Positions 1,199-5,882 of a DNA stretch of 64,000 nt are shown here, in pieces. The position numbers were made by a program, and so were the translations under genes. The notes beneath the pieces are model-generated. The model was not told the origin of the DNA, did no database searches, and saw only the letters and a program-made list of their open reading frames with translations. Position 1 is the stretch's first letter. Each line of letters opens with the position of its first letter. Origin of the DNA: an uncultured Chloroflexia bacterium (GTDB lineage Bacteria; Chloroflexota; Limnocylindria; Limnocylindrales; CSP1-4); NCBI GenBank assembly GCA_963748625.1, contig CAVVJT010000004.1, positions 512,001 through 576,000 of the forward strand, in the 5' to 3' direction.

Positions 1199-1840
1199 AT
1201 GCTGTACCGCGCCGACCCCTGGCTCCATGTGATCGCCGGCTGCATGTCGTCGGGCAAGACCGACGAGCTGCTGCGCCTGCTCCGCCGTGCGGAGATCGCC
1301 AAGCGGCGGATCCTGCTCGTGCGCCCGGACGTGGACGACCGCACGCCCGGCGAGTACGCGGAGAGCCGCAGCAAGGCGCGCTTTCCGTCGGTGCTGGTCC
1401 CCAAGAGTGAGCCCGTGGGCATCCTGTCCCTGGCCCGGGAGCGGGACGTGGACCTCGTGGGCATCGAGGAGGCGCAGTTCTTCGACGCATCGCTCTCGAG
1501 CGTGGCGGACACGCTTCGCCAGAGCGGGCGGCACGTCATCGCCAGCGGCCTCAACACGGACTTCGCGGGGCGCCCGTTCGGCGCGATGCCCACGATGCTC
1601 GCGATGGCCGATCAGATCACGATGCTCACCGCGATCTGCGTGGTGTGCGGTGAGACGGCAACGCGCACCCAGCGCCTGGTCGGCGGCCGGCCGGCTGCCC
1701 TTGACGACCCGCTCATCGTGATCGGCGGCTTCGACGGCCGCGCAGTTGAAACGTACGAGGCCCGATGCCTGCGCCACCACGAGATCGCGCCAGCCCGATC
1801 GGCCCGCGGCGTGGTTGCCGAGGAGTCCTCTCTGGCCTGA
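1199..1840 (+). CDS. tdk: Thymidine kinase (type II)
   Basis: GCMSSGKTDEL P-loop, EEAQFF, GLNTDFAGRPF, Zn ligands CVVC and CLRH, lasso IGG...YEARC. Confidence 0.92.
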   Translation: MLYRADPWLHVIAGCMSSGKTDELLRLLRRAEIAKRRILLVRPDVDDRTPGEYAESRSKARFPSVLVPKSEPVGILSLARERDVDLVGIEEAQFFDASLSSVADTLRQSGRHVIASGLNTDFAGRPFGAMPTMLAMADQITMLTAICVVCGETATRTQRLVGGRPAALDDPLIVIGGFDGRAVETYEARCLRHHEIAPARSARGVVAEESSLA

Positions 1841-1888
1841 TCCCAGCTCGCCGCGGTGGCCCACCCCGCGGCGCCCGCCCAGCGGGCA

Positions 1889-2172
1889 CTGCGCGCAGAG
1901 TTCTGCACACCCCGCCCGCCCTGCGGCACGATTGGCCCGATTCCGGTCCTTCGGAGCCTCCTCTACCCGCCTGGCGGCACATCTTCGCGGGATCCTGCAC
2001 GCAGCGCCCGCCACGCGGCAGGCGGGCCGGGGTCGAGCGCGGGATCCTGCACGCAGAGCCCGCCACGCGGCAGGCGGGCCGGGGTCGAGCGTGGCCGGGG
2101 TCCAGGCCGGTGGCGCAGCCAACCCTGGCCGACGCCGGCAGCCGAGGTCGAGCGTGGCGGGGTCGAGCGTGG
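1889..2172. repeat. Degenerate 116-bp inverted-repeat element, a 52-bp tandem duplication of its right end, and short GGTCGAGCGTGGC repeats
   Basis: 1889-1906 CTGCGCGCAGAGTTCTGC vs revcomp of 1987-2004 CTGCGTGCAGGATCCCGC (13/18). Units 1987-2038 and 2039-2090 differ at one base. Confidence 0.7.
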
Positions 2173-2193
2173 CCGGCCCCGGCCGGCCAACAA

Positions 2194-2282
2194 CTGTCCA
2201 CAATTCGGGGCCGGGTCCCGCGAATCGTGGACAACTCCCCGCCCCAGCCGGCGAATCTCGTGGATAAGCCCGTTGTGGACCC
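2194..2282. promoter_or_regulatory. Cluster of DnaA-box-like 9-mers
   Basis: CTGTCCACA 2194-2202 (+). On the minus strand: TTGTCCACG 2226-2234, TTATCCACG 2259-2267, GGGTCCACA 2274-2282. Each is 1-2 mismatches from TT(A/G)TCCACA. Confidence 0.55.
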
Positions 2283-2302
2283 CTGGGCTGCGCCCATATG
2301 GT
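2275..2302 (+). promoter_or_regulatory. Putative sigma70-type promoter of the candidate ncRNA
   Basis: -10 TATGGT at 2297-2302, 7 nt before G2310, and GTGGAC at 2275-2280 as a weak -35. Same TANNNT-to-start geometry as many genes in the window. Confidence 0.5.
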
Positions 2303-2309
2303 TCGTCTT

Positions 2310-2492
2310 GCCCGAAGGGGCCGCTAGCACTGACACCGGACCGGGGAGCAATCGCCGGAACGGGTCACCGGACCCGCTACCACGTATGGCCGCAAGGCTG
2401 AATGAGGTGGCAGTGGACTGGAGCCGCGGCGACAGGGCCGAGCTTGCTCGGCCGTGTGGCAGGCGAGTTGGTGCGGTACGGTTCCTTCGGGC
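2310..2492 (+). ncRNA. Candidate structured ncRNA, 183 nt, 6S/Ms1-like size and end-paired architecture, family unassigned
   Basis: GCCCGAAGG (2310-2318) pairs with CCTTCGGGC (2484-2492), and GCACTGAC (2327-2334) pairs with GTTGGTGC (2467-2474). Three internal arms are capped by GCAA (2348-2351), GCAA (2392-2395) and G-CTTG-C (2443-2446). Followed by GCTTTCGT. Confidence 0.7.
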
Positions 2493-2537
2493 GCTTTCGT
2501 GTGCGCCGAAACCGCGAAACCCGCAGCTCCCGGAGCC

Positions 2538-3005
2538 ATGGCCAAGCTCTCGTCTGGACTCCTGCTCTACCGTCACGTCGGCGACGAGATCCAGGTCCTG
2601 ATCGCCCACCCGGGCGGACCGATCTGGTCACGCCGCGACCTCGGCGCGTGGTCCCTGCCCAAGGGCGCCATCGACGCCGGCGAGGTGCCGCTCGAGGCGG
2701 CGCGACGCGAGTTCCACGAGGAGACCGGCCACGAGGCGCCCGACGGCGAGGTGCTCGACCTGGGTGTGGTCAGGATGCGCTCGGGCAAGGTGGTGCACGG
2801 CTTCGCGATCGAGGGCGACCTTGACCCAGCCCAGTTGAGGAGCATGCGGGTCGACGTGGAGTGGCCGCCCCGGACCGGCCGCCTGCTCAACGTCCCCGAG
2901 ATCGACCGGGTGCTCTGGGCCAACCCCGCCGAGGCGCGCCGCCGGCTCAATCCCGCCCAGGCCTCGTTCGTGGATCGCCTCCTCGAGACCCTCGGGCGGC
3001 CATAG
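2538..3005 (+). CDS. NUDIX hydrolase
   Basis: MAKLSSGLLLYR...AHPGGP...WSLPKGAIDAGEVPLEAARREFHEETG Nudix box. ATG 2538 follows GGAG. Confidence 0.9.
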   Translation: MAKLSSGLLLYRHVGDEIQVLIAHPGGPIWSRRDLGAWSLPKGAIDAGEVPLEAARREFHEETGHEAPDGEVLDLGVVRMRSGKVVHGFAIEGDLDPAQLRSMRVDVEWPPRTGRLLNVPEIDRVLWANPAEARRRLNPAQASFVDRLLETLGRP

Positions 3006-3059: not shown

Positions 3060-5882
3060 ATGACGTACGACGGCCGCCCCCTCGAACCAGCGCCCTCGCC
3101 AGCTCGCGGCCGCCGCAAGGCCCGCCGGGGCATCGGGCTTGCCGCCGTCATGGGCCTGCTCCTGTTCGGAGCCATGGCCCTGCTCGGCCTGACCGGCGCG
3201 GTGTTCGCCGTCACCACGTACACCTCGCTCACCCAGGGCCTCCCCGAGCCATCCAGTCTCGAGCGGATCGAGCTGCCCGAGCAGTCCGTCGTCTACGACC
3301 GGACCGGCACCGTGGAGCTCGCGCGCTTCGGCGAGTTCAACCGCAAGGTCGTCACGTTCGACCAGATCCCCGCGGTGCTCTCGGATGCCACCACGGCCAT
3401 CGAGGACCGCACGTTCTGGGAGAACGCCGGGTTCGACCCGGTCGCCATCGCGGCCGCCGGCCTGGACGCCATCCGCGGCCGCCCGCGCGGCGCCTCCACG
3501 ATCACCCAGCAGCTCGTCCGCCAGCGGCTGCTCACCACCGACGGGGTCGCCCAGACCGAGCTCACCGCAACCCGCAAGCTCAAGGAGATCGTCCAGTCGA
3601 TCCGCGTCACCCAGGCCTTCCCGGGCCCTGAGGGCAAGGAGCGGATCATCGCGGCCTACCTGAATCAGAACTACTACGGCAACGAGTCGTACGGCGTGGC
3701 CGCCGCCGCCCAGGCCTACTTCGGCGTCGAGCTCAAGGACCTCACCCTCGCCCAGGCCGCGATCCTGGCCGCGCTGCCCAAGGCGCCCTCGTCCTACGAC
3801 CTGGTCCAGAACGCCATCCTCGAATGCATCGACCCGGCCGCGGACGAGGAGACCTGTGAGACCCAGCTGGTCGTCCCGGCGGACACCACGATCGTCGCGC
3901 GGCGCAACCAGGTGCTCGCCGCGATGGCGCAGGGCAACACGCCGCTGACCGGTGACACGTTCACCCAGGCCGATTTCGACGCGGCCATGGCGGAGAACGT
4001 GGTGCTCGCCCCGCAGCGCACGAACCTCTGGAAGCTGCCGCAGTTCGTGTGGCAGGTGCGGCGCGAGCTGACCACCCGCCTGTGCGGCGAGGAGGTCGAG
4101 ACCTGCACCATCCTCGAGCGGGGCGGCCTCGCGATCACGAGCACCATCGACCTGCGCCTCCAGCGCCTGGCCGAGAAGTGGGTCAAGGCGGCGGCCATCG
4201 TCCCGCACGCCAAGGATCCTGAAGCGGCCGCCAAGGCACTCGGGCTCAAGTACCAGGACTGGATGCGGAACCTGGAGGACAAGAAACTCCGCAACGGTGC
4301 CTTGATCTCGATGGACTACGTCACCGGCGAGGTGCTCGCCTACCAGGGCTCCGCCGACCCGACGGCCACCAGGGCGACCAAGCGCTTCCAGCCCCGCTAT
4401 GACGTCCTCGCCGACGGCTGGCTCCAGCCCGGGTCCGCCTTCAAGCCGATCGTGTACGCCGCCGGCATCGACAACAAGACGATCACCGCGGGCACGATGT
4501 TCATGGACGTCGTCACGGACTTCGGTGGCGGCTACATCCCGACCGACGCGGACAACCTCGAGCGCGGTCCCGTGCGCGTGCGCGACGCCCTGCGCTTCTC
4601 GCTCAACATCCCGGCCGTCAAGGCGACCGAGGTGATCGGCAACGACACCATCGAGACCACCGCCGAGGCGATGGGCATCCGCTTCCGCGGCGGCGAGACC
4701 GATGCCGGCCTCACGCTGGGCCTTGGCGTGGAAGAGGTCCACCCCAAGGACCTGGTGCGCGCCTACGGCACGCTCGCCAACAAGGGCATCCTGGTCCCGC
4801 AGACCGTGATCATCAAGGTGGAGAGCAATGACGGGGCGGTCCTGATCGACGCGAGCACCAACCCCGACAAGGGCCAGCGGGCGCTCGACAACCAGACGGC
4901 GGGGATCGTCACCGACATCCTGGCCGGCAACACGGACCCCGACGAGAACCCGTACTGGGGCAAGTTCAGGGTCATGTCCGGCGGTGAGCGCAGGCCCGCC
5001 ACCCTCAAGACCGGCACCAACAACGACGCCAAGGACCTCAACGCCTACGGCTACATCGCAGCCCCGACCGAGCAGGGCCGCGCCGACGGCGAGTACGCCC
5101 TGGTCGTGGGCGCCTGGAACGGCAATTCCGACAACTCGTTCCTGAGCACCGCTGCCGACCCGCTGTTCTCGATCGACGTGACGACCTACGTCTGGGCGGG
5201 CTTCCTCAAGGATGCGACCAAGGGCTGGGCGATCAACGACTTCTCGCTCCCGGGCTCGCTGTCGGAGCGGGCGGTCGACCCGTGGACCGGCCTCGCGGCC
5301 GTCGGCGGCAAGCGCGTCAGCGAGTGGTTCCGGCCCGGCACCGAGCCCGCCGAGAACCTGCCCGCGGACCAGCGCTGCGGCACAGCCGTGCTGGGCACCG
5401 CCGGCTTCGAGGACGAGTACCCGGCGTGGATGGCCGCGAACGACGGCTGGATGCGGCGCGCCGCGAAGGGCCCCGGTGTCCGCGGAGGCCCCCAGCGCAC
5501 CGCCACGTCCTACTTCTACAACTTCGGCTTCAATCCGTACGGCAAGTCCTGGGGTCCCCTGATGGGCACGGGCGCCGGGTGCGCCGCGCCGTCCGAGAGC
5601 CCGTCGGTGGACCCGTGCGCCTCGTTTGATCCGCTCGCGTCGGTGGATCCGTCGGCCTCGCCGGTGGTCTGCCCGTCGCCCTCCGGGTCGCCGTCCGAGT
5701 CGCCGTCCGCATCCCCGTCCGAGGCACCAACGCCAGAGCCGACCATCGAGCCGACGCTGGAGCCGACCCTGCCGCCAACACCAGCGCCCACGCCGGAGCC
5801 GACGCTGCCCCCGACACCAGGTCCCACGCCGGAGCCGACGCCCGCACCGACTCCGCCCGTCGACCCCTCCGTGACCCCCTGA
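3060..5882 (+). CDS. Class A penicillin-binding protein (transglycosylase/transpeptidase) with a Pro/Thr/Ser-rich tail
   Basis: N-terminal TM helix. TG motifs EDRTFW, GASTITQQL, RKLKE, YLNQNYYG. TP motifs SAFK, SLN, KTGT. C-terminal EPT/PTP repeats. Confidence 0.93.
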   Translation: MTYDGRPLEPAPSPARGRRKARRGIGLAAVMGLLLFGAMALLGLTGAVFAVTTYTSLTQGLPEPSSLERIELPEQSVVYDRTGTVELARFGEFNRKVVTFDQIPAVLSDATTAIEDRTFWENAGFDPVAIAAAGLDAIRGRPRGASTITQQLVRQRLLTTDGVAQTELTATRKLKEIVQSIRVTQAFPGPEGKERIIAAYLNQNYYGNESYGVAAAAQAYFGVELKDLTLAQAAILAALPKAPSSYDLVQNAILECIDPAADEETCETQLVVPADTTIVARRNQVLAAMAQGNTPLTGDTFTQADFDAAMAENVVLAPQRTNLWKLPQFVWQVRRELTTRLCGEEVETCTILERGGLAITSTIDLRLQRLAEKWVKAAAIVPHAKDPEAAAKALGLKYQDWMRNLEDKKLRNGALISMDYVTGEVLAYQGSADPTATRATKRFQPRYDVLADGWLQPGSAFKPIVYAAGIDNKTITAGTMFMDVVTDFGGGYIPTDADNLERGPVRVRDALRFSLNIPAVKATEVIGNDTIETTAEAMGIRFRGGETDAGLTLGLGVEEVHPKDLVRAYGTLANKGILVPQTVIIKVESNDGAVLIDASTNPDKGQRALDNQTAGIVTDILAGNTDPDENPYWGKFRVMSGGERRPATLKTGTNNDAKDLNAYGYIAAPTEQGRADGEYALVVGAWNGNSDNSFLSTAADPLFSIDVTTYVWAGFLKDATKGWAINDFSLPGSLSERAVDPWTGLAAVGGKRVSEWFRPGTEPAENLPADQRCGTAVLGTAGFEDEYPAWMAANDGWMRRAAKGPGVRGGPQRTATSYFYNFGFNPYGKSWGPLMGTGAGCAAPSESPSVDPCASFDPLASVDPSASPVVCPSPSGSPSESPSASPSEAPTPEPTIEPTLEPTLPPTPAPTPEPTLPPTPGPTPEPTPAPTPPVDPSVTP

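Follow-up and report, generated by a model that had tools for sequence, protein, structure and literature searches.

The 64,000-nucleotide stretch of DNA analysed here, referred to below as the window, comes from an uncultured Chloroflexia bacterium of the family CSP1-4 in the order Limnocylindrales (assembly GCA_963748625.1, contig CAVVJT010000004.1, positions 512,001 to 576,000 of the forward strand). Positions 2310-2492 of its + strand probably encode a discrete, very abundant, trans-acting structured small RNA that is a member of a new RNA family. The RNA is about 183 nt long, consists of a closing helix and three arms, and is recognized by its fold, by covariation, by a covariance-model score of 171.7 bits and by contigs from RNA libraries. 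A first-pass annotation made from the sequence alone had proposed an independently transcribed structured RNA at this site, either a 6S/Ms1 analogue or a new class. Its independent transcription is supported by the conservation of both promoter and RNA, by covariation and by RNA-library contigs confined to the element, and the assignment to a new class agrees with the lack of any Rfam match. The main point was missed: the RNA is one paralogue of a multi-copy family whose members share a promoter box and an invariant terminal helix.

The + strand of 2310-2492 folds with a minimum free energy (MFE) of -111.6 kcal/mol, compared with -81 +/- 4.35 kcal/mol in 200 dinucleotide shuffles (z = -7.03), and none of the 200 shuffles matches its folding energy. 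The - strand of the same region folds more poorly (z = -4.05). The two ends, which had been described as pairing over roughly 20 bp, do pair, but as 14 and 5 bp split by an internal loop. In the 14-bp terminal helix the 5' strand GCCCGAAGGGGCCG (2310-2323) pairs with the 3' strand CGGUUCCUUCGGGC (2479-2492) and two G-U pairs are conserved; a 3/4-nt internal loop then leads to the predicted inner 5-bp helix (2327-2331 with 2470-2474). The three enclosed arms of the first-pass annotation are borne out by the MFE fold and by covariation, and they abut at a four-way junction with about one unpaired junction nucleotide. Arm 1 (2332-2366) is capped by GCAA at 2348-2351 and has a conserved GA..UC closing, arm 2 (2368-2421) carries a C-GCAA-G cap at 2392-2395, and arm 3 (2422-2469) a G-CUUG-C cap at 2443-2446, which places all three of the tetraloops that had been predicted. 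The GNRA and CUUG loops, as had been stated, and the two G-U pairs of the terminal helix exist on the + strand only. The helix is followed by a conserved U-containing tail, GCTTTCGTGTGCGC (2493-2506, +; family consensus GcTTtcgTGTgc), a presumed termination or trimming region outside the mature RNA. Long open reading frames (ORFs) overlap the region but are not credible, as had been judged before, and a coding reading is ruled out because, within the element, relatives differ by insertions or deletions of 1 and 2 nt.

Its own genome contains the full 183-nt element once. A BLAST search found a full-length relative with 75-83% identity in 23 of 24 same-genus genomes, the lone miss being a genome that is 69% complete, and no relative among 16 sister-family genomes. 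A covariance model built from 25 sequences (the genus alignment) scores 171.7 bits on the + strand of the element, whereas reverse-strand matches in relatives reach only 22-24 bits. All 12 same-genus genomes searched with this model were positive; six of these add to the BLAST set and bring the total to 29 of 30. The model also has matches in 66 of the 108 genomes examined from the window's family. The long-form model matched in 0 of 42 sister-family genomes. Conservation within the genus spans from about 2252, upstream of the -35 region, to about 2508, and the spacer leading to the start codon of the neighbouring NUDIX gene is unconserved. One genome (G008) holds two full-length copies of the 183-nt class (L007 and L026) on separate contigs, both with the tdk-side flank; this double copy may reflect two strains binned together, the genome contamination being 3%.

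Covariation supports the fold at two depths. The genus alignment holds 57 pairs, of which 98.7% of 1368 cells are paired, compared with 29-47% when the partners are slid; seven pairs show double changes, and the covariation score was reached by 0 of 500 shuffles. At the wider depth, 48 sequences from many genera were aligned with MAFFT, blind to structure; pairing there reaches 96.7% over the terminal helix, arm 1 and the arm 2 tip, 10 pairs (75 cells) carry double changes, and again 0 of 500 shuffles equal this result. The covariation that had been suggested as a check on the RNA is thus present within and across genera. Across genera, seven of nine arm 1 pairs and three of five tip pairs of arm 2 are compensatory, while helices 4-6 of arm 2 appear in the genus alignment and helices 7-8 of arm 3 are 98.8-100% paired in the genus. 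The cross-genus alignment is misaligned in the 3' half, and support for arm 3 and the inner helices comes solely from the genus alignment; at the position of arm 3, other genera carry a different hairpin module (module swaps). The terminal helix, with 12 pairs in the 48 sequences, is 99.8% paired, and all 48 have a G-U pair at two of its positions. The bases that are conserved close loops or lie in helices, and they do not form a single-stranded stretch.

The element belongs to a set of 131 distinct RNAs of 73-276 nt that share both end motifs (132 rows minus one coding chance match) and fall into length classes near 82-86, 111-119, 145-148 and 177-186 nt. Common to all members is a 5' GCCCGAAGGGGC that pairs with a 3' GUUCCUUCGGGC in the invariant terminal helix. 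Covariance-model matches from other genera begin with GCCCGAAGGGGC and end with GGTTCCTTCGGGC and a GCTTTCGTGT-like tail, and their interiors vary in sequence, length (122-223 nt) and arm number. Family interiors are made of one to four hairpin modules capped by a GNRA, CUUG, UUUA or GAUCACAUCAA-type loop, and shorter paralogues (73-150 nt) with identical ends are single hairpins or two-arm forms. There are about four family copies per genome, with differing interiors. In the window's own genome, an end-motif search found three paralogues besides the window copy, two whose ends are intact and one in which the 3' strand is degenerate. The first (C3:102438-102556; L002 1520-1638) is 119 nt long, has two CUUG-capped arms and lies between HflX-like and Rce1-like genes. 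The second, of 82 nt (C10:1175143-1175224), has an interior richer in AU and lacks the box, its promoter being a canonical TTGACA-N17-TACGGT. The third, which runs from C7:279878 downwards on the - strand, is a longer RNA with three mismatches in the 3' strand of the helix.

Two further features of the family were observed. A GAUCRCAUCAA-like (GAGAUCACAUCAAGG-like) hairpin loop replaces the CUUG hairpin in some genera and is present in 17 of 129 members, for example in L076 (1501-1713, four copies), L090 (2661-2808), L078 (1511-1656) and arm 3 of L063-L067. This loop could be a protein site or a tertiary-contact motif, and the presence of several copies of one loop motif in some paralogues recalls, by analogy, multi-site protein sponges. 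Members of about 80-83 nt also occur as tandem pairs 240-360 nt apart (L133 5280-5658, L144 1502-1824, L154 7066-7431 and L089 6282-6723). In L133, L144 and L154 the pair is formed by one member of GCCTGAAGGGGC type and one of GCTCGAAGGGGC type, each with its own box and -10 element.

The promoter region is conserved along with the RNA. The -10 element TATGGT (TAnnnT; 2297-2302, +) lies exactly 7 nt before G2310, where the first-pass annotation had placed it, and is separated from the first paired base by a conserved discriminator-like TCGTCTT (2303-2309, +; family consensus gTTcGtctT). Upstream is a proximal box, TCGTGGATAA (2258-2267, +), a putative activator site with 42 nt between its end and G2310 and a core that is invariant in the 25-sequence genus alignment. 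Of the 132 family rows, 125 have an exact GTGGAYAA that ends 40-43 nt, usually 41-42, upstream of the helix's initial G. The cassette of the family comprises one to three such boxes, a TAnnnT -10 element, the two helix strands and a short U-containing tail. The most frequent hexamers at -13..-8 (n = 132) are TACATT (29), TATCGT (28) and TATGGT (19). A weak -35-like hexamer, TTGTGG (2273-2278, +), stands at an 18-nt spacer from the -10 element, and its position is unconserved across the family. A weak, unconserved -35 combined with a box at a fixed distance suggests that the promoter depends on an activator. A distal box, TCGTGGACAA (2225-2234, +), lies 33 nt upstream of the proximal one, with GACAACT conserved in the genus alignment; a second box in the same orientation, 33 or 41-42 nt further upstream, is found in 66 of 130 members. 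A reverse near-copy, CTGTCCACA (2194-2202, -), with one mismatch to reverse GTGGAYAA, is located at about -116 from the RNA start, and about 40 of 130 members have an exact reverse box at -100 to -130.

Elsewhere in the window's own genome the 10-nt box lies mostly inside coding sequence, with one promoter-like exception. This site (C7:1232748-1232790, -; L204) has a perfect TTATCCACA, a TCGTGGACAA box and a TTGACG-N17-TAAATT site, and the gene downstream is one that, by eye from the translation, may be rsmG/gidB-like. GTGGAYAA also resembles the complement of the DnaA box, but this reading was not adopted. No stretch of the genome has at least four DnaA-like boxes within 600 bp, and around dnaA (C7:1162392) there is, to a distance of about 3 kb, no box with at most one mismatch from the DnaA-box consensus; the GC-skew extremes are uninformative on the fragmented assembly. 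Control by DnaA is therefore not claimed, there being no box cluster anywhere, including near dnaA.

Evidence that the element is transcribed comes from public sequencing runs, twenty of which hold part of the stretch; six of these are RNA libraries. Contigs were placed at 80% likeness for four RNA runs from four studies, three of sediment and one riverine. The three sediment runs have 325, 42 and 201 contigs on 2316-2507 and the riverine run has one; the peak summed word depth in these selected runs is 154,340, 24,977 and 98,873 for sediment and 3.47 for the riverine run. Contigs at least 99% alike to the window number 28, 11 and 14 in the sediment runs. Three runs have loose contig ends immediately ahead of 2317, and one (X19) has them immediately after 2490 and 2492. 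These ends, presumably Illumina adapter sequence, are a hint only; they would be expected if the library inserts stopped at the termini of a discrete RNA with 2492 as its final paired base. The adapter before 2317, which we take to be of the read-2 type, would point to + strand RNA if the library was a dUTP library. No RNA-library contig in the four runs lies on 2100-2315 or 2508-2675, and these uncovered flanks carry no evidential weight. The metatranscriptome contigs on 2316-2507 agree with the discrete transcript that the first-pass annotation had proposed to look for, but contigs do not give its start, end or strand.

The RNA family is undescribed and absent from Rfam. None of the 4227 covariance models of Rfam 15 matches at gathering score anywhere in the 64-kb window. 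At E <= 10 on 1800-2900 there are three chance-level matches, none of them on the element; at E <= 1 there are no matches on ten loci with paralogues and distant members, and at E <= 0.01 none on three other box-carrying loci. ARAGORN finds no tRNA or tmRNA genes in 1800-3000, on which ground a tRNA or tmRNA was rejected, and the earlier statement that no known RNA signature is recognizable here has held up. No literature was found on regulatory or small RNAs of Limnocylindria in a search that did not extend to supplements. A term search of PMC13212565 finds no mention of sRNA, small RNA or 6S RNA.

When 185,579 species genomes were scanned, the 3' motif was present in at least 120 stretches, of which 80 loci were listed. 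Among the matches listed, 34 also have the 5' motif 73-241 nt upstream, and 33 of these 34 are titled as Limnocylindrales, Chloroflexia, Chloroflexota or Anaerolineae-type metagenome-assembled genomes (MAGs), the remaining one being Patescibacteria; the other 46 loci among the matches listed belong to other phyla and are without the 5' motif. An even sample of 401 genomes of the phylum was also searched with the 16-nt 3' motif, with the pattern read backwards as a control. In this sample the motif is present in 19 of 23 genomes of the window's family and in the window's own genome, in 0 of 4 sister-family genomes and in 0 of 18 genomes from two other families of the class. It is present in 9 of the remaining 355 genomes of the phylum, a rate about equal to that of the control pattern (10 of 401). 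Among the genomes searched, the RNA family is confined to one family of Limnocylindrales. Of the viral contigs, 30 hold the 3' motif and none of the 30 has the 5' motif within 300 nt; a phage origin was rejected since no viral contig carries a family member.

The genes around the RNA are constant only within the genus. In the window the neighbours are thymidine kinase (tdk, 1199-1840), a NUDIX protein (2538-3005) and a class A penicillin-binding protein (PBP; 3060-5882), and the element precedes the NUDIX start codon by 45 nt on the same strand, an arrangement kept in the genus. Neighbour clustering covered 129 members. A tdk gene is found upstream of 30 of 77 long members, all at the genus locus, and a NUDIX-like gene downstream of 22. 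The homologs expected at the tdk-NUDIX-PBP locus thus exist in one genus, but other genera have other neighbours: outside the genus, 0 of 24 examined loci have tdk or NUDIX within 1.5 kb, and contexts there include Rieske and MFS genes in one genus and a DnaB-like helicase and a pyrophosphatase in another. Among short or mid-length members, 30 of 52 have an HflX-like GTPase gene 221-1290 nt upstream on the same strand. This variation in gene context argues for action in trans. At the 25 HflX-type loci (including L002, L027, L029, L031, L077, L087 and L110) the length of the RNA ranges between genomes from about 80 to 276 nt. The tdk-RNA spacer of the window contains a 52-bp unit in two tandem copies (98% matches, 1986-2091), and GGGGTCGAGCGTGG-type repeats continue beyond this unit to about 2180; the genus alignment begins downstream of them.

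Transcription would start at or next to G2310 from an activator-dependent promoter of the sigma-70 type, and the terminal helix and tail would terminate it. The tail may then be trimmed to a blunt helix end at about 2492, and an RNA with both ends buried in a blunt helix would be expected to be long-lived. Such an RNA would act neither as an mRNA leader nor as a classic seed-pairing small RNA. It is almost fully paired, its loops are hyperstable tetraloops of 4 nt, its ends are buried and the helix is the sole part that members share; for these reasons it resembles neither a seed-pairing sRNA nor an open-bubble mimic for RNA polymerase. The favoured reading of its function, still tentative, gives the invariant helix the role of a shared handle to which one partner would bind, a protein or a factor that protects or processes the ends. 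The arms would then lend each paralogue its specificity, making the RNA a candidate protein-binding decoy or scaffold.

Several points weigh against a discrete, abundant RNA with a dedicated partner. A consensus promoter scan calls no promoter at the element, and a terminator scan calls no site at the end of 2310-2492; the T-rich run that had been reported after the helix is there as a short tail, but 2493-2502 reads only GCTTTCGTGT. The transcript data are contigs, so that start, end, strand and level are hints only, and the RNA runs were selected for holding words of the stretch, which makes depth a biased measure of expression level. All genomes are metagenome-assembled, and that of the window is 98.3% complete with 7.74% contamination. 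Eight of the 12 terminal-helix pairs never vary in the 48 sequences and no pair has a double change. Given this near-invariance, what supports pairing in the helix is complementarity together with wobble changes; a single double change, from A-U to G-C, was seen by eye in the paralogue L077. Invariance of the helix could reflect initially transcribed promoter sequence, with the 3' strand merely following, and in that case a partner is not required. On this alternative the promoter would be a specialised one, and the helix would at the same time serve to terminate transcription and to protect the ends. Hfq, CsrA, ProQ and Ro60/TROVE (PF05731) were not found in the 98.3%-complete genome.

A broader proposal, which is unlikely, is that one transcription factor reading GTGGAYAA drives a regulon composed solely of blunt-ended, hyperstable, modular RNAs. 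The helix would dock one partner, or the helix and GNRA loops would assemble the paralogues into RNA-only or RNA-protein particles. Such a system might be linked to ribosome or replication status, given the short members downstream of hflX. If true, it would be a small-module counterpart of the ornate RNA assemblies that have been described recently.

It is similarly improbable that the family consists of trans-acting sRNAs that pair with mRNAs through loops or junction by means of seeds, the shared helix serving for termination and stability. An own promoter, a terminator-like end, variable interiors and unrelated neighbourhoods are what such sRNAs would have, and families of sRNAs under one regulator exist, as with the CiaR-dependent csRNAs and the Qrr sRNAs. 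However, nearly all of the RNA is paired, the GNRA and CUUG tetraloops are, at 4 nt, too short for seeds, conservation falls on helix and loop-closing positions rather than on any single-stranded stretch, and the genome search that found neither Hfq nor ProQ also speaks against it.

The suggestion of the first-pass annotation, a 6S- or Ms1-type RNA of this lineage that is abundant and binds and sequesters RNA polymerase (holoenzyme or core), is quite doubtful and was not upheld. The length of 183 nt, the paired ends, the own promoter and the very high apparent abundance resemble 6S RNA, and, in the available parts of PMC4191392 and PMC9130861, Ms1 is presented as a structural relative of 6S that binds core polymerase. 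The 6S model RF00013 has no match at E <= 1 anywhere in the genome (4.6 Mb, 98.3% complete), so the 6S niche looks unfilled; this is a weak argument, as the same search was positive in only 5 of 14 well-known genomes used as a control. Neither 6S nor any other of the 4227 Rfam models matches the element at E <= 10, and the fold is a tight, compact four-way junction, not a rod with a large central bubble that could mimic an open promoter. Paralogues of 73-150 nt with the same ends are not predicted by a polymerase mimic.

That the element is a leader acting in cis on the NUDIX-PBP1A genes downstream, as a riboswitch or attenuator, is very improbable. A same-strand position 45 nt ahead of the NUDIX start codon, kept throughout the genus, is what such a leader would show, but tdk and NUDIX are missing within 1.5 kb at all 24 non-genus loci examined, and paralogues with the same promoter and ends adjoin HflX, Rce1-like, Rieske, MFS, DnaB-like and other genes. 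There is no alternative terminator/antiterminator pair, one very stable helix closing the whole RNA, and sequence conservation ends before the ribosome-binding site. A riboswitch leader was rejected on its heterogeneous neighbours and its single dominant closed fold. A repeated DNA element of MITE or REP type with terminal inverted repeats, rather than a functional RNA, is the least probable and was rejected: it would account for the multiple copies, for ends that are near-inverted repeats of each other and for the variation in copy number and interior, but copies number only about four per genome and have differing interiors, the G-U pairs that all 48 sequences keep at two positions would count as DNA mismatches, stable tetraloops occur on one strand only, a promoter-like region travels with the element at fixed spacing in 125 of 132 copies, orthologous copies occupy one genus-wide locus and show compensatory substitutions, and RNA-library contigs lie on the element.

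Limnocylindria, a class of uncultured Chloroflexota, are abundant in soils, sediments and lakes. The design of the RNA family is unusual: a promoter box and a terminal helix of 12-14 bp stay fixed across more than 25 genera, with several paralogues per genome, and the interior is assembled from interchangeable hairpin modules. The family supplies a ready covariance-model seed for annotation and is a natural example of a scaffold for RNA stability or for a handle, and the GTGGAYAA regulon offers a route to a transcription factor and its signal in an uncultured lineage. As given in PMC13212565, CSP1-4 (2.4-3.2 Mb, 68% GC) and the single-genus, 1.3-Mb Limnocylindraceae are sister families; the two families compared here fit this description, in keeping with CSP1-4 as the family of the window. 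The RNA family may be one loss that accompanied genome streamlining in the freshwater sister family, a possibility suggested because the 3' motif is found in 0 of 4 and the long-form model in 0 of 42 of its genomes.

Among known systems, 6S RNA is similar in being about 180-200 nt long (here 183 nt), abundant and independently transcribed, with paired 5' and 3' ends. It differs in being a rod with a central bubble, whereas the RNA described here has three capped arms on a four-way junction and short paralogues that share its ends. Ms1 is likewise an abundant end-paired RNA with side arms, but it is about 300 nt long (compared with 183 nt here), the host here is a member of the Chloroflexota and not of the Actinobacteria, and synteny with tdk/NUDIX is restricted to one genus. 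As to homology with Ms1, no Rfam family of any name matches, the presence of an Ms1 model in the library being unconfirmed. According to the part of PMC9130861 that was available, Ms1 was discovered via synteny, its sequence being poorly conserved.

The raiA, OLE, ROOL and GOLLD RNAs are highly structured and rich in GNRA loops and approach housekeeping RNAs in abundance, a likeness that rests here on contig depth. In the available parts of PMC12968392 and PMC12286853, the abundance of raiA is described as comparable to that of rRNA and tRNA, and ROOL, GOLLD and OLE as forming RNA-only oligomers; a design of several paralogues with one shared helix and promoter is not stated there for any of the four. 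The family differs from them in having no Rfam match, and the element is much smaller than OLE, ROOL and GOLLD. In abundance and structure, orphan RNAs of this sort, such as raiA, come nearest to it; in design, the nearest are Y RNAs and sRNA families that form a regulon. With the CiaR csRNAs and the Qrr sRNAs the family shares several paralogous sRNA genes per genome, each headed by one common regulator box at a constant spacing to the -10 element. Those sRNAs act through exposed complementary stretches, whereas here nearly everything is paired and the conserved part is the terminal helix. In Y RNAs and YrlA, a conserved terminal helix formed by the ends is the handle for Ro60 (Rsr), while the remainder of the molecule is variable. 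The sequence of the helix differs from theirs, no Rfam Y RNA model matches and a TROVE/Ro60 gene was not found in the genome. The likeness is thus one of design only, but this combination of a conserved terminal helix with a variable remainder is the nearest analogy for how the RNAs of this family may work.

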